From: a virus
Taxonomy: Duplodnaviria > Heunggongvirae > Uroviricota > Caudoviricetes
Virus record (IMG/VR): IMGVR_UViG_2737471818_000009
Reading direction: 5' to 3' (one strand)
DNA: 35,267 bases
Below, in pieces: positions 401-35,267 of this stretch. The notes under the pieces were generated by a model that saw nothing but the letters and a program-made list of their open reading frames with translations, did not search any database and had not been told where the DNA came from. The position numbers and the translations under genes were made by a program. Every line of letters begins with the position of its first letter. Positions within the stretch are counted from its first letter, which is position 1.

Positions 401-541
401 TTACTGTTTACACTGTAAGAACGCCGCAAACTCCGCTCCCCAGAATCTCATCCGTATCTCGCACAGCGAACCGTGCAGCATCCAGATGATGAGGATTGCC
501 GTCACGCAGAACGTGATGGCTATAAGCGATTTTTGCGACAT
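401..541 (-). CDS. hok: Hok/Gef-family type I toxin (46 aa, below the ORF-track size cutoff)
   Basis: Hand translation: MSQKSLIAITFCVTAILIIWMLHGSLCEIRMRFWGAEFAAFLQCKQ; single TM segment followed by the Hok signature SLCEIR...E(F/V)AAF; ATG at 539..541 preceded by GGAG 8 nt upstream; perfect 9-bp hairpin at 370..391 just past the stop. Confidence 0.7.
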   Translation of the reverse strand: MSQKSLIAITFCVTAILIIWMLHGSLCEIRMRFWGAEFAAFLQCKQ

Positions 542-1375: not shown

Positions 1376-3073
1376 TCAGGCGATAAGGTCACCGTATTTT
1401 TCGCGCAGGCTCGTAGCCTGTTGGGCGTCTGCGGCAAGTTCGCTGCTGTTTGTTGGTGCGCCAGTATTGCTATGGGTATGGTTTGCAGTGTGTGTGGCCA
1501 GCAACTGAACCAGATCCAGAATATCAATCAACAACGTCAGCAGATTAAGTCCGGATTTTTCCCGTGAGCCACCGCGCCCAATAAATACAGTCGGGGCGGT
1601 AAATTCCAGGCCGCCGTCCGCCCGGCATGTTCTGCGGCCTCCCACGTTTTCGGTGAGGTTATGCTCGATGGTGGATGTCGCCCCTTTGAGTTTAGTCAGC
1701 AAATCCTGCGCTACCATCTGGATATGCTCACCGGCTGCGATCGCATAATGGCCAGTAGTAATGTGTTCTGTCTGACCTGTCATCAGCTTGCTGGTTCCCA
1801 GAACGCTGGTTATGTCGTTTGCCTGTACTGTTGTTGTTCTGGTTGTTGTTGTGCGTTCTTCCTGATCGCTGTTAATGGTTCGCCTGGCTGAATGCTCCCT
1901 GATTTGCTGGTCGGTTTCTCTGTGCCAGCTTCCGTCAGTCGTGACACGCTGAAACACCTCTGCGCGCTGTTGTTGCAATTGTTCGCCGGGCTTTACATCA
2001 GGCAAGTTATGACCAGCGGGTAAAATTTGCCTGATAACAGGCTTATCTGGGCGTCCTTCAATGTTGGATATTTCCACGATGGTGCCTGCTGGCGGGTAGG
2101 CAAAACATCCCGCCTCACTGCCAGCCATGGGGACGGGGAGTGGTACTGCCGGGTAAACAGGCGTATCGTTTTTATCGTTGCCGTTCTCATCAAGCAACTG
2201 CACATCGACGGCGTAGCGTGGGCGGAAACTGTCGGCTACATCGCCCAGGGTGACGGATTCCGTTGGGGCAATGACGCGCGCCAGCCGGGTATGAAGAGTA
2301 CCGCTGGCCAGTTCCGGGAACTGTGTTTCCATTTGTCTGCGTAATGGTGATTTGGAAACAGGGCTACCCGTGGCGGTAAGGCGCTCCCATGTCAGGGTCA
2401 TTTTCTCGTTGTTGAGGGCTACACGGGTAATGCGCCCGGCGGGAAGATTCACGCCCGGTCGCACAGTTTCCATAAACATGATGTCGATGCTGTTTCCGCC
2501 GCTTTGCCCGAGTGTGTACTGTTGCGGAATATCCGGCATGGTAATACTGGCAAACCGTGAATCAGCTGCGCTCCCCACAAATACAGAACCGTCCGGCATA
2601 GGGTGCCAGACGTAATCGCTGATACTGAATGCTCGCCCCAGTTGGCTGAGCAGTTGTGCTCCGCTGCCGCTGTGGGTGATGTAGGGAGTTGGTATACCGG
2701 CATAATCCGCATCCGGAGTGATAAAAACGATACCGCTTTGTCGCCCCAGATTATCGAGTACCCCCCGCAGCGTCGGGTGTTGCATGGAGCAGGGGAAATC
2801 AAAATCCAGCACAGCAGCTGCTTCACGGATAAAAAGGCGACGTGAGCCATTTTCAGCAGGTTGATCGCGCTCAATATAGCCGGAGAAATAGCGCCATGCT
2901 TCACCGTCACGACCGAGATCAATTTGTACCATTGCGCCGGCAAGGCTGTGTTCGGGTGACAGATTGTTAACAGAAATGAAGCCACGACCGGCAGCATTCA
3001 GGGTAAGAACAAGGCTTATATCGGCAATTTCCACCCGTTCGCCATTAATCATGCAGCGTTGTATCAATTTCAT
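1376..3073 (-). CDS. Putative baseplate hub/spike-like tail protein (gpD/gp27-like N-terminal region, tentative), 565 aa
   Basis: Last gene of the late operon, ATGA-coupled to the upstream ORF; N-terminal segment (VQIDLGRDGEAWRYFSGYIER) resembles late-control-D/VgrG hub proteins; PAGTIVEISNIEGRPDKPVI resembles a gpV/gp5 OB-fold motif; assignment by eye only. Confidence 0.4.
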   Translation of the reverse strand: MKLIQRCMINGERVEIADISLVLTLNAAGRGFISVNNLSPEHSLAGAMVQIDLGRDGEAWRYFSGYIERDQPAENGSRRLFIREAAAVLDFDFPCSMQHPTLRGVLDNLGRQSGIVFITPDADYAGIPTPYITHSGSGAQLLSQLGRAFSISDYVWHPMPDGSVFVGSAADSRFASITMPDIPQQYTLGQSGGNSIDIMFMETVRPGVNLPAGRITRVALNNEKMTLTWERLTATGSPVSKSPLRRQMETQFPELASGTLHTRLARVIAPTESVTLGDVADSFRPRYAVDVQLLDENGNDKNDTPVYPAVPLPVPMAGSEAGCFAYPPAGTIVEISNIEGRPDKPVIRQILPAGHNLPDVKPGEQLQQQRAEVFQRVTTDGSWHRETDQQIREHSARRTINSDQEERTTTTRTTTVQANDITSVLGTSKLMTGQTEHITTGHYAIAAGEHIQMVAQDLLTKLKGATSTIEHNLTENVGGRRTCRADGGLEFTAPTVFIGRGGSREKSGLNLLTLLIDILDLVQLLATHTANHTHSNTGAPTNSSELAADAQQATSLREKYGDLIA

Positions 3074-3645
3074 GTTTTCCCTTCCTCTTTCACGCTCCCG
3101 ATGCCAACAGCATCCAGACCAGACCCAACGGCATCATTGATTTTTTTCCAGAACGAACTTTGCGTATTCATGCCTTTGTCTGGTGCCTGTTCGCTGCCAT
3201 TCTGGGTCTGCTGTCTGGCGATGTTTTTTTGCGAGCCGCTGCGTGCGGATGCTTTCTCTGGCACGCTTAATTTTTCCCTGAGAGTAAAGGTGATCTGCCA
3301 GTGCATTTTTCCCTGTTGTTCCGTGGCATCAATGCCACCAGAAAATACCCCCTGTCGCATATTGATTGCCTTCGCGGTAGCGTTAGCAATGCGATATGTT
3401 TTTTTGGCTCCGTTGCTTTCTGTTGCCTCCGCAAGCTGAAAAATCCGGGTCAGAATAGCTTCATCGTTAAAATCAATAACCCCCGACACGCGCAGCTCTT
3501 TAGCCTTGTTTCCCTGCTGGGCGCTCGTGGTGCTGGTTGACTGTCCGGACATATCTTTGTCCGGTAGTTGCATGGTGGCGCTGACGGTGATGTTGCGCAG
3601 CAGAATGGCTTCCCCGTCAAGCGCAAGGACAATCATCTGGGTCAT
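3070..3645 (-). CDS. Hypothetical protein, 191 aa, probably tail/baseplate associated
   Basis: ATG at 3643..3645 (alternative 3634..3636); overlaps both neighbours; Ser/Thr/Gln-rich linker; no recognisable motif. Confidence 0.35.
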   Translation of the reverse strand: MTQMIVLALDGEAILLRNITVSATMQLPDKDMSGQSTSTTSAQQGNKAKELRVSGVIDFNDEAILTRIFQLAEATESNGAKKTYRIANATAKAINMRQGVFSGGIDATEQQGKMHWQITFTLREKLSVPEKASARSGSQKNIARQQTQNGSEQAPDKGMNTQSSFWKKINDAVGSGLDAVGIGSVKEEGKT

Positions 3646-4330
3646 GTAGTGCTTCCCTTAGTGATGAGAGATTATCGCCGACGAACAGCATCGCAGCTGT
3701 AAAAACCCACTCTGGGTGTGGGATATTTTTTTGTATCAGCACTGCAGCCTGGCTAAGGGCTCCCTTGTAGCAAAAGCGCCACACCGGGCAAAATTTTTGC
3801 CTGAGTGCGGCCTGCTGATCAGCGATTTCCTGCAGTGCTTTATCTCTCGCATGCATGAACTGATGCAGCGATGATGACAATGTTTCCAGTGATGTGACGG
3901 CAGGAGTGGCTGCCTGTGCAATGGTTGCTGCCAGCGACATGCTGCGAGTGGTCTGTGTCGACAGCATTATCGGTTCCGGAAGTGATGTTACCGGTCTGGC
4001 GGGGATTTGCATTCTGCTGATGGCCAGTGAAAGCTGGCTGGAGATCATGCGGGACATTCGTCCCACCTCTGGCAACGGAAATGCGCCTGAAAATTGCCTG
4101 GCGAGTGATAAAAACTCGCCAGCAGAAGGGGTGCAAAATAACAGCGCTACAATGTCCTTTTCTGTGCTTTCTTTCAGATAGGGTAAAAGTGCAGATACAG
4201 CATTTTTGGGGCTGAGATAACGCCCCGATGGTGTGATGTTTCCGGTATTCTCTGACCACGGATGAAGGCAAACCACAGAACATTTAATGTTCATGGCTGA
4301 CGGGCGCAGAATTGCCTTTTCCCATTTCAT
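3617..4330 (-). CDS. Hypothetical protein, 237 aa, function unknown
   Basis: ATG 4328..4330 overlaps the stop of the upstream tail fibre assembly gene (ATGA coupling); no recognisable motif. Confidence 0.35.
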   Translation of the reverse strand: MKWEKAILRPSAMNIKCSVVCLHPWSENTGNITPSGRYLSPKNAVSALLPYLKESTEKDIVALLFCTPSAGEFLSLARQFSGAFPLPEVGRMSRMISSQLSLAISRMQIPARPVTSLPEPIMLSTQTTRSMSLAATIAQAATPAVTSLETLSSSLHQFMHARDKALQEIADQQAALRQKFCPVWRFCYKGALSQAAVLIQKNIPHPEWVFTAAMLFVGDNLSSLREALHDPDDCPCA

Positions 4331-4902
4331 TGTGGCTCTCCAGCCTGAAAAGCGCGGATGTCGGCAAGATTATTCAGGTTTTCCAGCGCGTCTTTCATCT
4401 CTCGCTGACGTCGAAAAATTTCATCGTTGCGGTTAACCTGCGCCTGCGCCATAGCTGCAGCCAGCTCCTCCAGTTCTGTTATCGACAGTTTCACCTGCTG
4501 ATTATCAGCATCACTCCATGTCATAACGTCCCGCTGCGCTGTGTCAGATCCTGCAGCCATTACCAACGGGTAAAGGCGGGCCAGCGAGTCGGGGCCGGCA
4601 TTCCAGGTGTGACCGTTCCATTCAAACGTGAACGGCTGCGCTTCCTGTTCTGTGCGCCAGGCTTCGATTTCCCGCTTTTTGGCATCTTTTGCCACTGCGA
4701 TAAGTTCCGGCGTGACAGTAAACGGAGCGATTTCGCCCCATCTGCCACTCTGCAGTTCCCGCCAGATTTGCCGGCCCGTTTCTGCTGTATCATTTGCCGA
4801 AGCGGTGTATGGAACCGGCGTTTCCATACCTGAAAACACGACCATGCAGTCAACATCTCCGCTTTCAAGATACCGTTGTTCGCTGATTTTTTTTATTTCC
4901 AT
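4327..4902 (-). CDS. Tail fibre assembly chaperone (second copy)
   Basis: 191 aa, immediately downstream of a tail fibre gene; start overlaps the fibre stop; typical Tfa size and position. Confidence 0.65.
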   Translation of the reverse strand: MEIKKISEQRYLESGDVDCMVVFSGMETPVPYTASANDTAETGRQIWRELQSGRWGEIAPFTVTPELIAVAKDAKKREIEAWRTEQEAQPFTFEWNGHTWNAGPDSLARLYPLVMAAGSDTAQRDVMTWSDADNQQVKLSITELEELAAAMAQAQVNRNDEIFRRQREMKDALENLNNLADIRAFQAGEPQ

Positions 4903-6947
4903 TACATCGTCCTTATAAAGGCTGCAATAATGAACTCACCTTCTCCGGTGTAATCCGGTGTCCCGGAAAGTGCGCGGTAAACGCCTGGCAGTGTGTGTTT
5001 CTCTGCACCAGAAAGTCCAATTTTCGGCGACGATAACGCCCCTTCCGCAACACTGAATACTACAGGTGTCAGGGCGGAGCCCGGATAATATTGCCCTCGT
5101 CTGATACTGACCGTTTTATTACTGCCTCTGCCCTGAAGAGCTGCCAGCGTTATGCTTCCTGTATATGGGTCACCATAATCATCATTTGTGGTCCTGCTCA
5201 GAATTTGCGTAATATCATTCTGGTCAATATTTATTTTCCCCCACTCACTCAGTGAAGGACCATGTATGGCATCGTATGTTGCCCGGTACAGTTCACCGTT
5301 CATCCCGTAAAAAACAGCCATCTTCAGCATTACCGGGACAGTAAGGTTATTCCGCATCTCATCGGCAAAAAATAAATCAATCACACCTGTAAACTGTACT
5401 TCCGGTATAATTTCGCAGTCTGCGCTGACCGTATACCGCCCCGGTGTGGCATTTGAGATCCAGTCAAGAAGCACTTCCTTCGACGAAAAGCTGAGAACGT
5501 CACCTTTTGTGAAGATATGCCCGAATCCCAGACTGCCTGCAACTGCAGCCCGTCCCGGCGTTCTGTCATAAATGTCTGACTGGAGCTCATAATTTCCGCC
5601 CGATGCTGAATTTCCACTATTTCCACTGATACCCAGAACGTCACACATCTCTTCGGCTGTGGATTGTGACAGCAGCTGTTTCCCTTTTTCAGAAACAGGA
5701 ACCAGAGAACACTGCCCGTCACCGGTAAAACCGGGAAAACCGCTCCCGTCAGAAGGAAGATTACCTAACGCAGTCAGAACGGGACTTAACGGCTGTTTTC
5801 CGGCCAGCGCGTTCATCATTGTTGTCGCAAAGCTCGGGTCATTACCCAGCGCCTCCGCCAGTTCGTTCAGCGTGTCCAGGGCTTCCGGTGATGAATCAAC
5901 CAGTGCAGCAAGTAGTTTGCGGACAAACGCCGCATTAGCTATTTCATTACCTGCTGCATCATCCGGTGGTGTTGGCGTGGACGGCGTTCCAGTCAGCGCC
6001 GGGCTGTTCAGTGGGGCGCGGGTTTCAATCAGTGCCCGGAGTGTAGCCTCGTTGACTTTAAGGTTTTCCCAGCCAACCAGATAACCATCTCCGGTAGTCC
6101 AGTATCGGTTGTAATAAATATGGCCGTTAATACCGCAGAAAATAATAACTTTAGCTACATATGCCGGATTAGGATTGGTCTGATGTTCCGGCCAGATAAT
6201 TTCAATAGTGCCGCTGAACAGGACTTTAGGAATGATTTTATCTGCACCATAAACGATATAACGACCAGGTGTTGCCGTTTTTACCCACAGTAGAAAATCA
6301 GCCTCCGTTTTAAACTCGATCCTGTCACCACTGGAAAATATTTTCCCGAACCCGAACATGCCCGGAATTGCCAGACGGCCCGCGGTACGATCGTGGGTAC
6401 CGTCCTGCGACTCCATTGTGGCTGCGCTTTTTAGTCCAAGATTATCGCGGGATTCCTGCTGTGCTTCCGCGCCTGCTGCCGCAATTTCTGACAGATGGTT
6501 TGGAGCTTTCAACATTGTTTTCAGTTCCGGATAAATATCCACTTGCCAGCTTTGTGGGGGTACGGTGATTTGCGCAGACCGTGCTATGCCCTGATAAGTA
6601 ATCGTGAAGTTTCTGATCAGTGACTCGCCGGCATGTTTCTGTCTGACAGGTGTTTTTATTACGCCGCATAATGTTCCGCTGGCCTGATGAACCAGGCAAA
6701 TCCAGTCATAGCTGAATGCACAGTCATCAGGGACAACCGCGCTACACACAATATTGTTCGGGCTTAACTGGCCGTAGGTCAGTTCATTCACAGCATATGT
6801 GATTTTTTCTTCCGGAACGGTATTATCTTCGCGCGTTGGTTCCCGCTCCATCAGGGCAAAAATAATAGCGTCAGGGCGTGCAGGCAAATTACTGGCTGTG
6901 CATTCCGCAACCCACTTTTCAAATGCTTTCGTCAACAGTGCGCTCAT
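4902..6947 (-). CDS. Tail fibre protein (second fibre, 681 aa)
   Basis: N-terminus (MSALLTKAFEKWVAECTASNLPARPD) parallels that of the first fibre; Gly/Ser-rich repeats; followed by a Tfa gene. Confidence 0.7.
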   Translation of the reverse strand: MSALLTKAFEKWVAECTASNLPARPDAIIFALMEREPTREDNTVPEEKITYAVNELTYGQLSPNNIVCSAVVPDDCAFSYDWICLVHQASGTLCGVIKTPVRQKHAGESLIRNFTITYQGIARSAQITVPPQSWQVDIYPELKTMLKAPNHLSEIAAAGAEAQQESRDNLGLKSAATMESQDGTHDRTAGRLAIPGMFGFGKIFSSGDRIEFKTEADFLLWVKTATPGRYIVYGADKIIPKVLFSGTIEIIWPEHQTNPNPAYVAKVIIFCGINGHIYYNRYWTTGDGYLVGWENLKVNEATLRALIETRAPLNSPALTGTPSTPTPPDDAAGNEIANAAFVRKLLAALVDSSPEALDTLNELAEALGNDPSFATTMMNALAGKQPLSPVLTALGNLPSDGSGFPGFTGDGQCSLVPVSEKGKQLLSQSTAEEMCDVLGISGNSGNSASGGNYELQSDIYDRTPGRAAVAGSLGFGHIFTKGDVLSFSSKEVLLDWISNATPGRYTVSADCEIIPEVQFTGVIDLFFADEMRNNLTVPVMLKMAVFYGMNGELYRATYDAIHGPSLSEWGKINIDQNDITQILSRTTNDDYGDPYTGSITLAALQGRGSNKTVSIRRGQYYPGSALTPVVFSVAEGALSSPKIGLSGAEKHTLPGVYRALSGTPDYTGEGEFIIAAFIRTM

Positions 6948-6953
6948 TACTTC

Positions 6954-7505
6954 TTAATTCTCGCTAATGTTCTGCGGTAATTCTGGCCATACAATCGCGG
7001 CATACGATGCTCTATCTGTAACCTGGCTGAATGTCATCTCCCGTAACGTTTTTGTATAAATACGGCAGGCTTTCAGTTTTTCCCTGTCTTCGTCGCTGAT
7101 TAATCCCAGCAGCAGATCTTTTTCCCATTCGCTGGTCATGATGCTGACCTGTTTTAACAGTGCATCACGCTCATCTTCCGCTTTAAGTTTGTAGTCGAAA
7201 ACAAATTCATCATTGCGGTAAAACCAGTAACCCGGTGCGGTAATGCGGCGGTTAGCGGTAATATCAGGAACTTCAATAACACTGGCGTTACGGGGTTCAA
7301 TGCCTGTCACATCCTTACCGACCCACACCACGCGTCCGTCTCCGGTGTAAACCATTTTTATGGTGTCACTGGTAAAGTTCTTCTGTTCTTCATACCAGTT
7401 TTTGCCGTCTTCCGAAAAAAGCCAGGTGACATCATATTGTTTTGTCAGCTGATATTGTTCCGCGGTTTTCGGATTACCCGCAGTAATACTTTTTAAATGC
7501 AACAT
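6954..7505 (-). CDS. Tail fibre assembly chaperone (first copy)
   Basis: 183 aa directly downstream of the first tail fibre gene. Confidence 0.65.
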   Translation of the reverse strand: MLHLKSITAGNPKTAEQYQLTKQYDVTWLFSEDGKNWYEEQKNFTSDTIKMVYTGDGRVVWVGKDVTGIEPRNASVIEVPDITANRRITAPGYWFYRNDEFVFDYKLKAEDERDALLKQVSIMTSEWEKDLLLGLISDEDREKLKACRIYTKTLREMTFSQVTDRASYAAIVWPELPQNISEN

Positions 7506-7507
7506 TG

Positions 7508-9208
7508 TTAAACACTCGCCACGTTATACCAGGTGCCATTAATCAGTTTCTGAAGCGGTCGGTAATACACGCCGCCGATGTTATCCGCCGAATTACTTCC
7601 GGTTTCCTGCACATTAATGCCGGATAACCCGTGGCCTGAAGGTGAGCGAAATGTCCAGGATATCTGGTTACCTCCCGGGTTGTAATACATTTCGGAACCG
7701 TACCTTACATCCTGCACTCCCTCTGTTCGCTGCTTATACCTGGCATCAAAGTTTCCGTAATCTGACGGCGTTACCCGACCGGAAGTGTTCATGGCCCTGT
7801 TACTTTGTAACGTCCCGTTCTGAAAACGGAATATATGCTGGCCGTTGGCATAAATATCCAGCAGACCGTCGCCATTCTGCTTTATACCCGTATCGTTATC
7901 CCCGAAAGCAATTGAGTTTCCGCCCAGCGCGTTCTGAACGCCGATACCCAGCGCACCATTCACCTGAGAACCGCCACCAACAGACACTTTATGCGACATG
8001 GATATTTCACCCGTCCGCAAATTAATAGTGAACGGACGCAGGGGGCCAATATCGCCGTTTTCGCCCTGATTTTCCCGGGTGGGAATAAGATGCAGGCACT
8101 CTTCAGAACGACGAAAAATCAGGCCAAAAGCTTCGTTGAAAATCCTCAGTGCATTAACACCACGGATTTTCAGCTCCCCGGTCATGGTGTCGCCGTCGCG
8201 CTCAACAGCGTCTTTTGCTTTATCCATTGCGGCTTTTACTGCCTTTGATGTGGCGGCGCGGTCTTCTGCGTCGCTGTCGGTGGAGTTGCTGTACTGCGCA
8301 AAGCCTTTCTCCTTCAGTGTTGCGTCCGGATGATGGCGGGATTTTTCGTGCTCTGCCAGTGCATTGCTTTGTTCTTCGTCGGGTGTCTCCGGGCGCAGGT
8401 CCTGTGGGCCGTCTCCTGTCATTTTTGCAAGTGGCGCGACAAAGTGTCGGAAGCCGTTACCGTCTGTATAAGACGCATGTTCCTGGCGGGCGCAAAACGT
8501 AAAAACGGTATTCCATTCGCCGGTAACAAATCCCTGCCAGCTTGCATCAATCCAGAGGGTATCCCCGACCGCAGCCGGCAGGCTGTAAGGTTCGCGCAGA
8601 CTGACGCGCAGACCTCCCACATAACCCACGCCGGCGGCAACAGTAGCGGTACCGTCCTGATAGCTGACCTGAAAACCATCCCCCAGAAAAGCGGCTTCAC
8701 CGTAGTGATCAAACGCCAGCAGCCGGCGGGCCTCATCCATTCCTGCAAGGCGTGCAGTGAAATCAATCTGCCAGACATCAGCGCTGACATCGATATGCAT
8801 TGCTGCGGCTGCGCCGTCAAACTCCATGGAAAATGTGCGGATCAGGTTGTTTCCCTGCACGCCGTTCGCTGTTTTAATTTTTTGCTGACGAGGTGTGTGT
8901 GCAATCATGCAGAGCACGCCGCTTTCTTCGTTCAGCAGGCCGATCCAGTTGTATTCGAAGTCGCCGACTGTCGTGTCCAGAATGATGGAAAACGCGGTCG
9001 CGTTCGGGGACAGGAGGCCGTACTGGGTGACCGGCGCACGATACTGAATCATGGATTCATCAGGGAGTATCTCATCGCGGGGGATCTCTGCGGATTCATC
9101 CTGTCCCGGAATATATGCAAAAACAAATGTATCCGGGCGCGCAGGTTTTCCACTGATGATTTGATTTGCGCACCAGTGTTCGTACTGTTCAGTAATAATC
9201 GTGCTCAT
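7508..9208 (-). CDS. Tail fibre protein (first fibre, 566 aa)
   Basis: N-terminus MSTIITEQYEHWCANQIISGKPARPD related to the second fibre; internal SNSTDSDAEDRAATSKAVKAAMD block typical of myovirus tail fibres; ATGA-coupled to the upstream baseplate gene. Confidence 0.75.
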   Translation of the reverse strand: MSTIITEQYEHWCANQIISGKPARPDTFVFAYIPGQDESAEIPRDEILPDESMIQYRAPVTQYGLLSPNATAFSIILDTTVGDFEYNWIGLLNEESGVLCMIAHTPRQQKIKTANGVQGNNLIRTFSMEFDGAAAAMHIDVSADVWQIDFTARLAGMDEARRLLAFDHYGEAAFLGDGFQVSYQDGTATVAAGVGYVGGLRVSLREPYSLPAAVGDTLWIDASWQGFVTGEWNTVFTFCARQEHASYTDGNGFRHFVAPLAKMTGDGPQDLRPETPDEEQSNALAEHEKSRHHPDATLKEKGFAQYSNSTDSDAEDRAATSKAVKAAMDKAKDAVERDGDTMTGELKIRGVNALRIFNEAFGLIFRRSEECLHLIPTRENQGENGDIGPLRPFTINLRTGEISMSHKVSVGGGSQVNGALGIGVQNALGGNSIAFGDNDTGIKQNGDGLLDIYANGQHIFRFQNGTLQSNRAMNTSGRVTPSDYGNFDARYKQRTEGVQDVRYGSEMYYNPGGNQISWTFRSPSGHGLSGINVQETGSNSADNIGGVYYRPLQKLINGTWYNVASV

Positions 9209-9840
9209 GCTTCATCTGCCTGTAATGTGTAATGTTCCACGGACAGGCCGTAATGTCCTGCCTGTAGCGAAGCGGTTAACCAGATGGTATCCTTTCTCAC
9301 AGTTGCTTCTGCTGTGTGATACCTGTAATGGCCATCGAATGTGCCGGCTGTCATCCGGGCAGTGGTTGTATTGATTACCTGAAAGAAATAGCGCCTGCAG
9401 GTACGACCATACTGGCGCACGAGCTGCATCATCAGCGCGTTGTTTTCACTTAACTGGGTGTCATTAATGCGCAGTAAAATAACGTCCCAGTCATGCTGCA
9501 GTTGCCGTTCCAGTGTTTTAACGTCTCCCACGCCAAGACGCTTAAAGATGCGTTCGAAGCCGGCGCGTTCGCCCGAGTCCTGAGCGTTAATAAACGCGTG
9601 TTTCACTCTTAAGCGAAATAACGAAACCGGCTCACCTTTAAATCTGGTGATATTGCGCTGATAAGCCAGCAGGTTAAGTAAAGGCTCTGCGCAGGTGTCG
9701 ACATCAATCTGCTGTAGTGGCCACGTCAGCCAGCTGTATACCTTTTCCCAGTAGCGATGCGATGAATGTGCCAGCGTTAACGGCTCGCCTTTATTCATCC
9801 AGGTGGGGAGCGGGAATTCAGGGATCTCCGGAAGTTTCAC
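9205..9840 (-). CDS. Baseplate/tail protein, P2 gpI-like
   Basis: 211 aa between the J-like gene and the tail fibre; position 9838..9840 is GTG (internal ATG at 9796..9798); family assignment by eye. Confidence 0.55.
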   Translation of the reverse strand: MKLPEIPEFPLPTWMNKGEPLTLAHSSHRYWEKVYSWLTWPLQQIDVDTCAEPLLNLLAYQRNITRFKGEPVSLFRLRVKHAFINAQDSGERAGFERIFKRLGVGDVKTLERQLQHDWDVILLRINDTQLSENNALMMQLVRQYGRTCRRYFFQVINTTTARMTAGTFDGHYRYHTAEATVRKDTIWLTASLQAGHYGLSVEHYTLQADEA

Positions 9841-11021
9841 GCGCTCACCTCCACAGTAAGGGATTCCAGACGAGGAACAGCCAGATCACTGAGAATATCC
9901 GGAAGAGAAAATGTAACCGACTCCACCTGTGGAAATACCTGGTGGATCTCTTCGCCCAGTCTGGACATGCTGAAACGGCTATACGGCCATGTTTTCTGAA
10001 CGTCATAATCGCTGTTTTCTCGAAATGCACAGCGAACCAGATTTTCCACGTTGCGCAATAACGTCTGAATTTCCTCATCGCTGAGGTTCAGCGTTGCATA
10101 TAACCAGAGTGTCACGGTCAGGGTGTGGCGTGTTTCAGGCATGGAAAAACAGCGCAGATCATCACCGTGTCCGTGATGACCTTCATCGTTAATGAATGCG
10201 TTTACTGCATCAACGAACGGTTCGGATGCGATGCCAGTATCCAGCAGAATGTAAGCATTTGCTGTGCCGGGGCCGCGTGGTGCGTCATGCAGAAAATAGA
10301 TGCGGTCGGCACTGATGCCGGCAACGCCGGCAATTAATCCCCGGTAAACAGCATCTGTGTGATAAGCGCCGGCAAGATTAAACTGATTGCGAACACGATC
10401 ACGCAGCTCGTCATCGCTTTCTTCGTTGGCACCCGGTGTGGTCAGCCAGTTTTCATCGTTCTCAACACCGGCAATACCATCAATCGCCACCGGAAGGATG
10501 CGGTAATATCCCGGCGCAAGGTTAAAGCCGGCTCCGGCCTGTTCCGCAGAAGCATCGATGTTCATGCTGAGTGTTCCTGCCGGAATAACGGTATCCCTGA
10601 CAACGGTCAGCGTATAAATCACGCCGTTAATGCGTTCTGTCTGAATCTGCGTACCGGCCGGCACGGTAACTGCGTGATCAATGTCGTTTTTGGTGAAACG
10701 AATCACGCCGGCTGCGTGCGTGGCGGCCTTGCGTTGCAGGTTTACCGCCCAGGCAAAAACATCAACGAATACACCGCTGGCATCAGCCAGAAACAGGTTT
10801 TTCATCACCACATTAACCAGCGCATCTTTCAGCCACATTACGGGTTTTGTGGTGATAGCTGTAATCAGTCGCCAGAACGGCGACATGCGGGATGTGTTGG
10901 TGATAAGCCCTTCGTCTTTGACAATGGCTTCAAATTCAGCACGTGCCTGTTCTTCGGTTACCGGCATGCCATTATCAGCCAGAATGCGCTCGTAATCTGC
11001 GGTAGGTTTGCCGTTAATCAT
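9837..11021 (-). CDS. Baseplate J-like protein (gp47/J family)
   Basis: 394 aa; ATG at 11019..11021 (the track start at 11024 is TTG); position between the small baseplate gene and the I-like gene. Confidence 0.7.
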   Translation of the reverse strand: MINGKPTADYERILADNGMPVTEEQARAEFEAIVKDEGLITNTSRMSPFWRLITAITTKPVMWLKDALVNVVMKNLFLADASGVFVDVFAWAVNLQRKAATHAAGVIRFTKNDIDHAVTVPAGTQIQTERINGVIYTLTVVRDTVIPAGTLSMNIDASAEQAGAGFNLAPGYYRILPVAIDGIAGVENDENWLTTPGANEESDDELRDRVRNQFNLAGAYHTDAVYRGLIAGVAGISADRIYFLHDAPRGPGTANAYILLDTGIASEPFVDAVNAFINDEGHHGHGDDLRCFSMPETRHTLTVTLWLYATLNLSDEEIQTLLRNVENLVRCAFRENSDYDVQKTWPYSRFSMSRLGEEIHQVFPQVESVTFSLPDILSDLAVPRLESLTVEVSA

Positions 11022-11364
11022 CAAGAGATACCGTAAAAGTCAGGGGTTCAAAAAAATCTTCGGTGTGGGCGCTAATCAGCAGGCGACCAGAAAGCGGGGT
11101 TTCTTCTGTCACACTGACCGTGCCAGGTGTGATGCGCTCATCATCTTCAATCAGCAGTGTCATCTGCATCATGATGTCGGCACGAAGCGTCGGGCTTTTT
11201 TCAGCCAGCAGGCGCGTTGCCAGTCCGCTTTCAATGATGGCGTGCTGGCAGTCCTGGGCAATACTTTCCCTGTTGTTGCATAACACCGGCTCACTGGCGC
11301 TGTTCAGCGTGAGATTGCGGCCGGTGATGAGCAAATCAATGTAAAGCGGTTTATCAGTATGCAT
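11014..11364 (-). CDS. Small baseplate protein (gpW / Mu gp46-like position), 116 aa
   Basis: ATG at 11362..11364 overlaps the tape-measure stop by 11 nt; the track ORF 11014..11502 extends upstream inside the tape-measure gene and is probably over-called. Confidence 0.45.
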   Translation of the reverse strand: MHTDKPLYIDLLITGRNLTLNSASEPVLCNNRESIAQDCQHAIIESGLATRLLAEKSPTLRADIMMQMTLLIEDDERITPGTVSVTEETPLSGRLLISAHTEDFFEPLTFTVSLDD

Positions 11365-24199: not shown

Positions 24200-24571
24200 T
24201 TATTCAATGGCAGACAACTGATAATTTGTGTCTTCCTGCAGGCTGGTTAAAGAAATATTATCCAGTGCAGCCAGAATAACGTGCTGTGTATATAATCCGG
24301 AACATTTCATTGCCCGAACAACATCACCAACACTGTAATTTTCTTTTGTTGGGATATATCCACCACCCGGGCCGCGTGTGGCTTTTACCAGGCTACTTTC
24401 CCGTAAATATCTGAATATTTGCTCCAGATATGACAGTGAAACGGTTTCTTTGCTTAATTGCCGGAGCGAGATTGGCTTTCCGGTGTACTGTTTCACAAAT
24501 TTAATCATTACCATAACTGCAACTGATGCACGCTGGCTTCCGGAATTATCTTTCATCATGATTACTTCCAT
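24200..24571 (-). CDS. Rrf2-family winged-helix transcriptional regulator (no Cys cluster ligands)
   Basis: ISLSYLEQIFRYLRESSLVKATRGPGGGYIPTK matches the Rrf2/IscR recognition helix-wing signature; only one Cys downstream; ATG 24569..24571 overlaps the upstream stop by 1 nt. Confidence 0.65.
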   Translation of the reverse strand: MEVIMMKDNSGSQRASVAVMVMIKFVKQYTGKPISLRQLSKETVSLSYLEQIFRYLRESSLVKATRGPGGGYIPTKENYSVGDVVRAMKCSGLYTQHVILAALDNISLTSLQEDTNYQLSAIE

Positions 24572-24876
24572 TAATGGCATAAATTGATGGAGCGGGTCAG
24601 TGAATAAAGAGGCAATACATTCCATCCCTTAGAGCGCCAGCTGTCTGCAACATCTTTACTTCTTGTTATCGCCGGTATTCCAATAGGATTATTTGCGTGC
24701 ATCCATGCCACTGGCTCTGCTTCCAGTGATGCAAGTGCGATTTCCAGTGCGATTAACATATTGTGATCGTCTTCATCAAGACCGAACGGGATGTCTTCGC
24801 GCCACGATTTAAACTCTGTGATTTTACGTTGTAACCATTCTTTGGTAATGGTGGACATAGTTACTCCTGTTTTCAC
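24571..24876 (-). CDS. Hypothetical small protein (95-101 aa) coupled between parR and the Rrf2 gene
   Basis: Position 24874..24876 is GTG overlapping the parR stop; first ATG at 24856..24858; no recognisable motif. Confidence 0.4.
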   Translation of the reverse strand: MKTGVTMSTITKEWLQRKITEFKSWREDIPFGLDEDDHNMLIALEIALASLEAEPVAWMHANNPIGIPAITRSKDVADSWRSKGWNVLPLYSLTRSINLCH

Positions 24877-25187
24877 TTCGGGAAAAACGCCTGAATATTC
24901 TTTTTCACCTGCTGCATATGGGGGGCGCTGTCTGCTGCTGGTTGCGCCGGTTTTTCAGGCTGTACTGGTAGCGGTGGCATCCGTATTTCGTCTTCTGACC
25001 ATTCTGCCAGCGAATACGCCAACGCGGGGGTGCGTTTTATAAGAGCCAGTCCGGCCAGAAAAGCCGCGCGTTGTGCGCGGCTGCGTTCGGAGGCTGGCAG
25101 GCTGTCGAGGTAACTGCACGCCTCCCGTTCGCTCTTGACGACGGTGGGCTTCAGATAGAAACTTATCCGTCTGGTTGGTGTCGTCAT
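24873..25187 (-). CDS. parR: ParR-like centromere-binding protein (type II partition adaptor)
   Basis: 104 aa from ATG 25185..25187 (AGGAG RBS); RRISFYLKP...YLDSLPASERSRAQRAAFLAGLAL parallels plasmid R1 ParR (RRTIAFKLNP...TLDSIPQGERSRLNRAALTAGLAL, recalled); 5 nt after the parM stop. Confidence 0.7.
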   Translation of the reverse strand: MTTPTRRISFYLKPTVVKSEREACSYLDSLPASERSRAQRAAFLAGLALIKRTPALAYSLAEWSEDEIRMPPLPVQPEKPAQPAADSAPHMQQVKKNIQAFFPK

Positions 25188-25191
25188 TGAT

Positions 25192-26151
25192 TTACTCCTG
25201 GTCCATTGCGTACAGCCCATTAACCAGAGCAAACTGTGGCACCCCGTCCGCGATGAAAGTCGCATTAACTCCGCAGGCTTCGCAGATAGCGGGTGCCACA
25301 ATCTCCGCTCCTCCACCTACAACCATCACCCGCCCGTAACCCGAAAAACCCGCCAGCGCGCGGATCACGCGTTGTTTCAGTGTTTCTTCCTTTTCACGAA
25401 TAACTGCCATCAGGCTGGCGTAATGCGCGTCATTGTGGATGTGCTGGCGCAGCCAGGCTTCATCGTGGCGATGTTCGATAATGGTATTGGCGATGTGGTG
25501 ACTGGTGCGCATACCGTTGGTGGCCATCACCGACAGCACGGCATCGGCCATCAGAGAAACGCCTACGTGTGGATCGCAAAACACCTGGCTGATACCTGCC
25601 AGCTGCCCCTGAACCTTTGCCACATCCAGCGTGGTTCCGCCCAAATCCACAATCAGCAGGGATTCAAACGGACTCATGTCGGCCAGTGCTTTAAAGCCAG
25701 CCGGAATGGATTCAGGCATAACCCGCACGTTACGGATAGTGAATGCTTCGCCGTTCTGGTACTCCACCGGGCGCATAACGTTCGCTTTTTTGCGGTTGAT
25801 GTTGGCCATGTCCGGCTGTGCGTTTGTGTCGAAATACTCGCTCAGTGGCAGGGTGACAACCACATCCACCTCCTGTGGCGTGATGCCTGATTTGACCAGC
25901 GCGTGATGAATGGCAATGACATTCACATCGCTGTACTGGTATTGCGTGTCGGTCGTCTGGACAAAGCGATCGCTGACCGGATCAAAACCATAGCGCACAC
26001 CATCAAGCATGTAGTTCGCGGGCTGCGTGCCACCGAACGGCGCAGACCATTCCGACTTGAAGCTGTTCGGGCTGATGGCGTTGCGGCGTTCGCCGTTCTC
26101 AGTCCATGCCAGCTTGATGTTGGTGGAGCCGTCGTCGATACAAATTTTCAT
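25192..26151 (-). CDS. parM: ParM/StbA-like actin-fold partition ATPase
   Basis: 319 aa with IDDGSTNIKL, ISPNSFK, YSDVNVIAIHHAL, RKKANVMRPVE, MPESIPAG, DLGGTTLD and GGGAE motifs, collinear with plasmid R1 ParM. Confidence 0.85.
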   Translation of the reverse strand: MKICIDDGSTNIKLAWTENGERRNAISPNSFKSEWSAPFGGTQPANYMLDGVRYGFDPVSDRFVQTTDTQYQYSDVNVIAIHHALVKSGITPQEVDVVVTLPLSEYFDTNAQPDMANINRKKANVMRPVEYQNGEAFTIRNVRVMPESIPAGFKALADMSPFESLLIVDLGGTTLDVAKVQGQLAGISQVFCDPHVGVSLMADAVLSVMATNGMRTSHHIANTIIEHRHDEAWLRQHIHNDAHYASLMAVIREKEETLKQRVIRALAGFSGYGRVMVVGGGAEIVAPAICEACGVNATFIADGVPQFALVNGLYAMDQE

Positions 26152-30109: not shown

Positions 30110-30940
30110 TTACTTCACCGGAACAAACGGAACAGCGGTATTACTGGTCATGTATTGCGGCAGCGTGCCGTTCCATTTGTTGATAGCTTCCAGCTCCATA
30201 ACGCCGGGGTTCTGGCGCAGAGCTTCACCGCGCAAACGAATGGCGTCGGCTTCAGCCTGGGCTTTTGTGCGAATGGCATCAGCCTGTCCGGCTGCTTCTG
30301 CGCGTAGCATGTTGGCTTCTGCTTCGCGCTGCTTGACTTCCTGTTCGCGTTGCAGAGTTTTCTGGTTTGCCGTGACTTTGGCATTAATGCTGTCGATAAC
30401 GGTTGGTGGGTATTCCGGTTTACCGACATAAGAGAGGCTCATTACCTGAATGCCGATAGGTGTCATTTCTGCCTGAATGTCTTTAAGTGCTGAATCCAGC
30501 AGTTCAGACTTGCCGCCGTCGATAAATTTATCGGTGGTCATTTTGCTGGCCAGTCGGTTGAGTGCGTCGGCGATCTTCTGGCGCAGGTCAGTGTCGGTAA
30601 TGTCATCCACGCCTTTGCGGTAGGTCTGAAACACTGTAGTAACTTTGGATGGATCAACCTTGTAGGCCACACCGATGTGATAGCCGATGGTTGTGCCGTC
30701 ACTCATCTGAAAGCTGAACGGCTCATCGTAGGTCTTCATTTGTTTGAAGGTTGGGAAGATGTAAACCTCTGTATTCCAGCCTGTCCAGTAGCGGCCAACG
30801 CCAACTACTTCGCCGACGCCTTTGTCGTCGCCCAGCTTGTTGACTTTGATGCCCACATTACCTGGCTCAACGCGATCGCAACCAACCAGCAGGATGGCGG
30901 CAAAAAGCGGGAGAATCTGAAAGAGTTTGAATTTCTTCAT
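30110..30940 (-). CDS. SPFH/band-7 (stomatin/prohibitin-like) lipoprotein
   Basis: 276 aa; signal peptide with lipobox LLVGC; SPFH-like core; C-terminal Ala/Glu/Gln-rich coiled-coil (QREQEVKQREAEANMLRAEAAGQADAIRTKAQAEADAIRLR). Confidence 0.75.
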   Translation of the reverse strand: MKKFKLFQILPLFAAILLVGCDRVEPGNVGIKVNKLGDDKGVGEVVGVGRYWTGWNTEVYIFPTFKQMKTYDEPFSFQMSDGTTIGYHIGVAYKVDPSKVTTVFQTYRKGVDDITDTDLRQKIADALNRLASKMTTDKFIDGGKSELLDSALKDIQAEMTPIGIQVMSLSYVGKPEYPPTVIDSINAKVTANQKTLQREQEVKQREAEANMLRAEAAGQADAIRTKAQAEADAIRLRGEALRQNPGVMELEAINKWNGTLPQYMTSNTAVPFVPVK

Positions 30941-34211: not shown

Positions 34212-34277
34212 CCCTTTATTATTCTTACGTTTTACAAACTGGAAATGTCTTTCCTCGTTTCACCGGAGGGCTTGCCA

Positions 34278-35267
34278 ATGGCAATTAAAGCGCTCGATGG
34301 TGGACGGTATAAAGTGGATGTTAGACCGCGTGGCCGAAGTGGACGTCGGATTCAGCGGATTTTTAAGAAAAAGGCAGATGCAGTGGCCTTTGAGCGTTAT
34401 GTTCTCAGCCACATGCACGATAAGGAATGGCTTGAAAAGCCAACAGAGCAACGTCATCTCTCAGATCTGCTTCCGTTATGGTGGGAATTGGGTGGACGCA
34501 ATAAGCCATATGCTAACGGCGTTCTAACCAGGTTGAAAAAAATCATCAAAGAAATGAATGATCCAAGGGTTAGCCAGATTAATGCTCGTTTCATGGCAGC
34601 TTATCGAAGCTCCCGTTTATCCTTGGGAGTAAAAGAGTCTACTGTTCGGCGTGATGAGTCGGATCTCGGAGGAATGTTTACACTCTTGGCAAATGCCGGA
34701 GAATTTCACGGAGAAAATCCACTCCGCGCCCTCCCCTCTTTGAAACGAAAATCACCCGAAATGACGTACCTCACTACGGAAGAAATCGCCAAATTGCTGG
34801 ATGCAGTAAGCGGTGATGCTCGGCGGATTACGCTACTTTGTCTCAGTACTGGGGCGAGATGGGGAGAAGCGAAAAATCTGCGCGCGGAACACATCATCAA
34901 TAATCGCGTGACGTTTAACAAAACTAAAAACGGAAAAGTTCGAATTATTCCTGTCTCTGATGAAGTTGTTAGTGAGATCAAAACAAAGAAATCCGGCCTT
35001 TTGTTTGACGTCAATTATGAGGAATATCGCAAGGTGCTTCGCAGTGTTAAGCCAGACCTACCAAAAGGACAGGCTGTACATGTTCTACGCCATACCTTTG
35101 CTGCTCACTTTATGATTAATGGAGGAAATATACTTACGCTCCAGCGAATTATGGGGCACGCCACGATCCAGCAAACTATGACCTATGCGCACCTCGCTCC
35201 TGATTTCCTCCAGGATGCAATTTCACTTAATCCGTTAAAAGGAGGCATCCACATTTCATCCACATAA
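34278..35267 (+). CDS. int: Tyrosine integrase (P2 Int family)
   Basis: 329 aa from ATG 34278 (GGAGGG RBS); N-terminus MAIKALDGGRYKVDVRPRGRSGRR like P2 Int; C-terminal catalytic motifs HVLRHTFA and MTYAHLAP; stop codon is the last codon of the window. Confidence 0.9.
   Translation: MAIKALDGGRYKVDVRPRGRSGRRIQRIFKKKADAVAFERYVLSHMHDKEWLEKPTEQRHLSDLLPLWWELGGRNKPYANGVLTRLKKIIKEMNDPRVSQINARFMAAYRSSRLSLGVKESTVRRDESDLGGMFTLLANAGEFHGENPLRALPSLKRKSPEMTYLTTEEIAKLLDAVSGDARRITLLCLSTGARWGEAKNLRAEHIINNRVTFNKTKNGKVRIIPVSDEVVSEIKTKKSGLLFDVNYEEYRKVLRSVKPDLPKGQAVHVLRHTFAAHFMINGGNILTLQRIMGHATIQQTMTYAHLAPDFLQDAISLNPLKGGIHISST

Follow-up and report, generated by a model that had tools for sequence, protein, structure and literature searches.

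Tail fibres on P2-type baseplates are attached through an N-terminal domain, DUF3751 (PF12571), which forms the baseplate-attachment region of P2 gpH, pyocin Prf15 and xenorhabdicin XnpH1 (PMC4684702, PMC7882524, PMC13280938). In the described systems (P2 gpH/gpG, pyocin Prf15/Prf16, XnpH1) this domain is followed by a variable receptor-binding part and, downstream, by a chaperone. As published, P2, R-type pyocin and xenorhabdicin carry one DUF3751 main fibre per particle. HP1 (orf31/orf32) and its isolated relatives Salmonella SW3, Yersinia vB_YenM_324, Escherichia ESSI2_ev040 and Aeromonas phiO18P likewise encode one fibre and one chaperone between gpI and orf33. Mu (S/U and S'/U' of the G segment) and P1 (S/U) encode two fibre-chaperone pairs giving two specificities, but in Mu only one pair is expressed at a time, as Gin inverts segments of opposite orientation that have a single constant N-terminal part in common. 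Here we describe a 35,267-nucleotide (nt) stretch of Caudoviricetes DNA (IMG/VR record IMGVR_UViG_2737471818_000009, hereafter the window) whose tail operon carries two tandem DUF3751 paralogs, fibre 1 and fibre 2. Unlike the Mu segments, both genes are complete, lie in direct orientation, have their own anchors and are accompanied by neither an invertase nor an inverted repeat.

The fibre genes alternate with two small genes on the same strand, and all four open reading frames (ORFs) are exactly as listed in a sequence-only reading of this DNA made without database searches:

7508-9208, minus strand: fibre 1, 566 amino acids (aa), ORF intact
6954-7505, minus strand: Tfa1, 183 aa, Caudo_TAP (PF02413, phrog_136)
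4902-6947, minus strand: fibre 2, 681 aa, ORF intact
4327-4902, minus strand: DUF4376 protein, 191 aa (PF14301, phrog_1141)

Homology between the N-termini of the two fibres extends across about 165 residues and takes in the entire DUF3751/PF12571 baseplate-attachment domain (35% identity over 168 aligned positions, BLASTP E = 4e-24); BLASTP detects no similarity between the distal parts. The sequence-only reading had recognised both the related N-termini and the divergent distal regions, but it limited the relationship to some 40 residues, which are the best-conserved part of the anchor and all that it noticed. Both N-termini are predicted to serve as baseplate anchors. The domains assigned to the two fibres are as follows (pLDDT, predicted local distance difference test; AF2, AlphaFold2):

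8738-9202, minus strand: fibre 1 anchor, DUF3751/PF12571, aa 3-157 (Pfam 102.5 bits, cut-off 23)
fibre 1 aa 297-335, minus strand: Phage_fiber_2 repeat (Pfam)
7514-8191, minus strand: fibre 1 distal Mu gpS-like receptor-binding region, aa ~340-565 (PDB 5yvq_A)
6498-6947, minus strand: fibre 2 anchor, a diverged DUF3751/PF12571 paralog, aa 1-150 (Pfam match at aa 3-138, 42.3 bits, gathering cut-off 23)
6027-6455, minus strand: fibre 2 repeat domain copy 1, aa ~164-307 (AF2 pLDDT ~80)
5199-5651, minus strand: fibre 2 repeat domain copy 2, aa ~432-583 (internal duplication, AF2)
4905-5198, minus strand: fibre 2 C-terminal tip, aa ~584-681, hypervariable among relatives

The first module resembles the fibre apparatus of Mu. 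Its distal region matches the Mu tail fibre protein S (PDB 5yvq_A, E = 1.5e-18), and Tfa1 matches Mu gpU (PDB 5yvq_B, E = 5e-38) while passing the PF02413 threshold (78.3 bits, cut-off 22.1). By homology, Tfa1 is assigned to the Caudo_TAP family of tail-fibre assembly chaperones as a gpU homolog.

The distal part of fibre 2 is built differently. It contains an internally duplicated domain of about 145 aa, whose copies are 32% identical over 152 positions (E = 4e-25), with a helical shaft between the copies and the variable tip after them. Relatives that retain the repeat domains and DUF4376 have tips that are 32-51% identical or undetectable. Enterobacterial prophage fibres very commonly carry this distal module, usually joined to a PF08400 anchor ('prophage tail fibre N-terminal'); such fibres are sometimes labelled 'side tail fiber' in the sources. 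The exact fibre 2 protein occurs in public collections (P0019), with 31 member sequences and 80 contigs. An AF2 model from a 39-sequence alignment has a mean pLDDT of 56, values of about 70-85 being confined to the two repeat domains and the tip. Foldseek found no PDB match to this model at E <= 0.001, the best being weak similarities to phi812/K baseplate proteins.

The small protein behind fibre 2 belongs to PF14301/DUF4376 (63.9 bits, cut-off 25). The sequence-only reading had given each fibre its own Tfa, which holds for the first small protein; the second is of a separate family. It has no PF02413 match in Pfam, and aligning the chaperone pair, as that reading had proposed, does not bear out two Tfas: BLASTP finds no similarity between the proteins, and hhalign returns a profile-profile probability of 1.2%. 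A sequence search of the PDB revealed no relative of solved structure. The AF2 model (pLDDT 87) matches many viral DUF4376 proteins and no fold in the PDB, Mu Tfa included. Experiments in Alteromonas phages V22 and A5 and in Campylobacter CJIE1 prophages have shown that fibre function depends on a DUF4376 protein whose gene lies downstream of the fibre (PMC7289586, PMC10579305, PMC7882524). Since family members are needed there, the 191-aa protein can reasonably be presumed to be the chaperone of fibre 2. In relatives, DUF4376 accompanies fibre 2 proteins that end in the repeat-domain module and tip, two loci excepted, and is missing beside other distal modules.

A separate observation concerns the two small-protein families. 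In six single-fibre HP1-like loci of Aeromonas (L066, L091, L092, L102, L109 and L110), the small protein after the fibre matches ad hoc profiles of both Caudo_TAP and DUF4376. Such proteins could be hybrids of the two chaperone types; alternatively, the families could be joined through intermediates despite the dissimilarity of the pair in the window.

The two anchors have different histories. That of fibre 1 shares 45-58% identity with the single-fibre anchor of other HP1-like prophages and is its ortholog. That of fibre 2 reaches just 28-36% identity with the anchors in 73 other HP1-like loci. Being this distant from all single anchors and from fibre 1, it is an old paralog and did not arise by recent duplication. 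Purifying selection acts on it (omega, the ratio of nonsynonymous to synonymous substitution rates, dN/dS, is 0.07-0.15), and its dS reaches saturation even where the fibre 1 anchors of the same phages differ by a dS of only 0.07-0.09.

The two-anchor layout is specific to the lineage, and all copies examined have it. In a set of 5426 complete E. coli genomes, the second anchor and the orf34-35 of this lineage were found in the same 48 accessions (48/48). All 13 related loci that are complete from gpI to orf33 (eleven of 22 IMG/VR loci, E. albertii L033 and a Yersinia kristensenii locus) have two PF12571 fibres between these genes, and the ORF beginning with the second anchor is intact in each. 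The Yersinia locus was pointed to by a word-indexed protein search with the fibre 2 anchor, which returned 18 proteins, mostly short and labelled partial. Sampling one genome per species gave 80 HP1-like loci, about 65 of them complete. Two PF12571 fibres occur only in E. albertii, itself of the window's lineage, and the complete loci of other species have a single fibre. One further locus (L103) yields two anchor matches that we read as one gene split in two. A limited literature search turned up no P2/HP1-like phage described as having two DUF3751 fibres, which does not prove absence.

In the Y. kristensenii locus (L113 9001-11288) the second fibre is split into a 200-aa DUF3751-only protein and, 96 nt away, a 340-aa distal protein, with DUF4376 after the latter. 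The 200-aa protein is reminiscent of the short 'a-type' DUF3751 adaptors known from Pseudomonas tailocins. A comparable arrangement, a 285-aa anchor protein and a 352-aa ORF without DUF4376, is present in E. albertii (L033) and L025.

Both fibre genes sit inside a tightly packed tail operon with the order gpJ, gpI, fibre 1, Tfa1, fibre 2, DUF4376, orf33, orf34, orf35. The genes on either side of the four are:

9837-11024, minus strand: gpJ-like protein of the tail operon
9205-9840, minus strand: gpI-like baseplate wedge protein, 211 aa (PF09684 Tail_P2_I, phrog_1228)
3617-4330, minus strand: HP1 orf33-like protein, 237 aa (phrog_1677)
3070-3645, minus strand: HP1_ORF34 baseplate protein of the tail operon
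1376-3073, minus strand: orf35-like baseplate protein of the tail operon, 565 aa

Spacing from gpJ to orf35 ranges from -29 to +6 nt. The gpI-like gene adjoins fibre 1 upstream and overlaps its start by 4 nt; the DUF4376 gene overlaps the fibre 2 stop by 1 nt at its start and the orf33 start by 4 nt at its stop. A scan of the gpJ-orf35 block found no promoter-like or convincing terminator-like sites within it. Since orf33-35, which are essential for the baseplate, lie downstream of fibre 2, transcription has to run through fibre 2.

The sequence-only reading had also noted the lack of an inversion system, and this agrees with wider scans. No resolvase/invertase domain was detected in any scanned ORF of the window, whose sole recombinase is a tyrosine integrase. 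Between positions 1000 and 12000 the longest inverted pair spans 34 nt at 74% complementarity, and none is meaningful. All genes of the fibre region are on one strand, with no oppositely oriented alternative fibre segments. The locus thus has neither the serine invertase nor the flanking inverted repeats of the invertible switches Mu G, P1 C, e14 P and Min.

Another conceivable reading is that fibre 2 is a non-functional remnant, a pseudogene or a cargo gene unused in the virion. The RefSeq annotation of E. coli A2, the closest relative, lends some support to this, as it divides the gene into 'incomplete' pieces. The 681-aa ORF is nevertheless intact there as in the window (fibre 1 is intact in both as well), and a propagated mislabel accounts for the annotation. 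Selection on the whole fibre 2 gene is also purifying against E. coli A2 (dN/dS 0.26, giving an omega range of 0.07-0.26 with the anchor values). The presence of the second anchor in all 48 E. coli copies, the intact ORF in all 13 complete loci and the translational coupling of fibre 2 to essential downstream baseplate genes argue in the same direction. We consider a remnant highly improbable.

The annotation itself merits a comment. At L001 8365-9948 (E. coli A2, NZ_CP028772), which corresponds to 4902-6947 of the window, RefSeq splits the intact 681-aa gene in two and calls one piece a 'shikimate transporter', a name carried by many listed enterobacterial tail-fibre proteins. The label is an annotation artefact that spreads among tail-fibre proteins, and the pseudogene reading drawn from it was rejected. 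A read-through fusion of Tfa1 and fibre 2, which are in the same frame 6 nt apart, was also considered and rejected, as relatives are arranged otherwise (for example, with a 1-nt overlap in L019).

Fibre 2 is also the exchangeable part of the operon. Divergence of the fibre 1 anchor follows that of gpI closely (Spearman 0.91), and divergence of the fibre 2 anchor does so much less (0.35). Furthermore, the 5' end of orf33, and with it the first residues of the protein, varies with the type of fibre 2 cassette, which marks the downstream recombination junction. Taken together, the decoupling from gpI and the variation in orf33 indicate that the entire fibre 2 gene is exchanged as a cassette that includes its anchor, any chaperone and the orf33 5' end. 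The anchor is thus swapped along with the hypervariable distal modules. The length of fibre 2 among close relatives, 285-842 aa, shows how widely the cassettes differ. The second fibre is a lineage-specific, exchangeable addition built on an old paralogous anchor, an aspect that the sequence-only reading overlooked.

The longest variant, an 842-aa fibre 2 without a downstream chaperone, occurs in L023 and L027 (6754-9282). It gives a sub-threshold, glycoside-hydrolase-like PF22422 hint (E = 0.0027, 17.8 bits, cut-off 27) and may be a depolymerase-type tailspike in the same slot.

The analysis establishes which genes are present and what they are homologous to, how tightly the operon is packed, how selection acts, and how the second fibre is distributed and exchanged as a cassette; that both fibres are expressed together, reach the virion, dock at separate sites and bind different receptors is inferred. 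Co-expression with two specificities, as the sequence-only reading had proposed, is the most economical reading because the genes are intact within one operon, inversion machinery is absent, selection is purifying and all 48 of the 48 E. coli copies carry the second anchor. We propose that the locus encodes two co-transcribed receptor-binding modules that are both displayed on the virion at different sites, with fibre 2 as an exchangeable cassette, and we give this reading a probability of roughly 0.55. Module 1 is the ancestral fibre of the phage group: its DUF3751 anchor is inherited along with gpI, its distal part is like Mu gpS and its Tfa like Mu gpU. Module 2 is an addition of the Escherichia/Salmonella/Yersinia lineage, in which the old, diverged DUF3751 paralog is fused to an enterobacterial distal module and followed by DUF4376. 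Both would be transcribed jointly within the late tail operon of an HP1/P2-like temperate myophage, and each fibre would trimerise with the aid of its own chaperone. The two fibres, probably made together, would then use their paralogous anchors to attach to one baseplate, in all likelihood at separate sites. Such a virion would carry two specificities simultaneously, unlike the DNA-inversion switching of Mu and P1. Exchange of the fibre 2 cassette, up to the orf33 5' end, would retarget one fibre and leave fibre 1 unchanged.

Several points weigh against this proposal. The fold of fibre 2 is unmatched, given the low mean pLDDT of its model and the lack of a significant PDB match. DUF4376 has no sequence or fold kinship to Mu Tfa and is linked to a chaperone role by family membership only, and in L021 and L022 a fibre 2 with a single repeat domain occurs without DUF4376. 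The P2-type baseplate reportedly offers six fibre sites, as seen in the R2 pyocin baseplate structure. Comparison of gpJ, gpI and orf33-35 with single-fibre relatives reveals no extra gene and no obvious extra docking domain.

The last observation, together with the membership of both anchors in one domain family and the missing invertase, would also fit a competition of the two fibres for the same six sites through their DUF3751 anchors, resulting in random mixtures per virion or in mixed particle types. Fibre 2 anchors that are just 70% identical are found on near-identical baseplates (gpI 99-100%), which suggests a small conserved interface. Against this stands the distance of the fibre 2 anchor from every primary anchor (28-36%) and its lack of co-variation with gpI, both unexpected for a shared interface. 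Known multi-receptor-binding-protein phages dock each such protein at its own site, and halving the copy number of each fibre would be costly. Competition is possible, if rather doubtful; if it occurs, it would produce phenotypic host-range heterogeneity without a DNA switch. Put more broadly, stochastic fibre mixtures at six shared sites could give one genome an assembly-level, non-genetic form of bet-hedging as an alternative to the Mu/P1 invertases, with the second fibre retargeted by cassette exchange, a scenario that we regard as doubtful. The weak coupling between the fibre 2 anchor and gpI favours a distinct docking mode, short of proof.

That fibre 2 evolves independently of gpI at its anchor could also mean that it does not dock directly on the baseplate and instead branches from fibre 1 or from another tail protein such as orf33, in the manner of the branched adhesins of G7C, CBA120 and DT57C-type phages. 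The orf33 5' end varies with the cassette, the divergence of orf33 correlates with that of the fibre 2 anchor (Spearman 0.5-0.58), and the separate 200-aa anchor protein that precedes the 340-aa distal protein in Y. kristensenii is adaptor-like. The correlation is, however, equally explained by linkage and a recombination junction within orf33, and orf33 is present in all single-fibre relatives. We consider branching unlikely. Confounded by linkage and the junction, the moderate co-evolution of the fibre 2 anchor and orf33 was not used as a docking hint.

Placing two simultaneously mounted modules beside other described systems shows what is peculiar to the lineage. HP1 and its isolated relatives share the tail/baseplate backbone with the window (DUF2586, DUF2590, gpJ, gpI, orf33, HP1_ORF34 and orf35), and fibre 1/Tfa1 occupy the slot of their single fibre and chaperone. 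Their orf34 is at most about 50% identical to that of the window, and therefore no isolated phage in the searched collection belongs to its lineage. The gene order fibre, Caudo_TAP, fibre, DUF4376 recurs in phiP27 (L54-L57), Rac-SA53 (tail1-tail4) and vB_Apl-pPE4 (gp67-gp70), with homologous distal modules and 70-75% identical DUF4376 proteins. These phages differ in their baseplate backbones and have unrelated fibre N-termini (non-Pfam in fibre 1, PF08400 in fibre 2). The shared four-gene order thus indicates that the module pair recurs on different baseplates. Mounting both receptor-binding modules on DUF3751 paralogs appears to be peculiar to the window's lineage.

The fibre-DUF4376 order is also found in Alteromonas V22 (gp26/gp27) and A5 (gp8/gp9) and for the H-fibre of Campylobacter CJIE1. 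The sequence relationship to these systems is distant and each of the phages has a single pair of this kind; the need for DUF4376 was shown by experiment there. K1-5/SP6 and Felix O1-like phages are similar to the window in that two receptor-binding proteins are encoded together and displayed simultaneously, the display being predicted from genes in the case of the window. They are of other morphotypes and attach these proteins by adaptor proteins or tailspikes, without DUF3751 anchors. The likeness to the Mu and P1 pairs similarly lies in two fibre-chaperone pairs, for which the two specificities of the window are a prediction.

One of the comparison phages raises a question of its own. Phage vB_Apl-pPE4 (L003, PP818812), labelled an Actinobacillus pleuropneumoniae phage, has 89-92% nucleotide identity to the E. 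coli prophage Tfa/fibre DNA. Its tail region is nearly colinear with that of Escherichia phage Rac-SA53 (L004), with fibre proteins 86-93% identical. The host assignment or isolate purity of vB_Apl-pPE4 may deserve a check.

For the most part, this locus represents ordinary modular tail-fibre evolution and opens no new question. Its modest novelty is a duplicated baseplate anchor that became fixed in a lineage with a minimal P2/HP1-type tail. Phages and tailocins with P2-type baseplates are a favoured chassis for retargeting, and the fusions of pyocin and P2 anchors to foreign receptor-binding domains all run via DUF3751. A natural lineage with two diverged DUF3751 anchors on one baseplate suggests that particles can bear two specificities. 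If so, the lineage would offer a ready-made second anchor and an insertion slot. The Tfa1/fibre 2 boundary and the orf33 5' end are the junctions at which receptor-binding cassettes are swapped naturally.

The window as a whole approximates a complete HP1/P2-like prophage, with P2-type head genes, a gpA replication protein and, at the right end, the tyrosine integrase (34245-35267). Its closest nucleotide matches are E. coli chromosomes, with up to 97.8% identity across 7 kb. The tail block contains DUF2586, DUF2590, Baseplate_J, Tail_P2_I, HP1_ORF34 and an orf35-like gene in HP1 order, colinear with HP1 orf27-35, and thus belongs to the HP1-like Peduoviridae tail modules.

Several other genes of the prophage are worth recording. 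Just past orf35, a 46-aa ORF (401-541, minus strand; MSQKSLIAITFCVTAILIIWMLHGSLCEIRMRF...) resembles a Hok/Gef-type small membrane toxin, and the Y. kristensenii relative has a PF01848 HOK_GEF gene in the matching relative position (L113 15089-15238). The early/accessory region encodes an SPFH/Band 7 protein (30110-30940, minus strand) and an Rrf2-family regulator (24200-24625, minus strand). Alongside the tyrosine integrase, the window encodes a ParM/StbA actin-like segregation ATPase (25192-26151, minus strand) and a Plasmid_stab_B protein (24873-25316, minus strand), which together form a plasmid-type partition system within an integrating P2/HP1-like phage.

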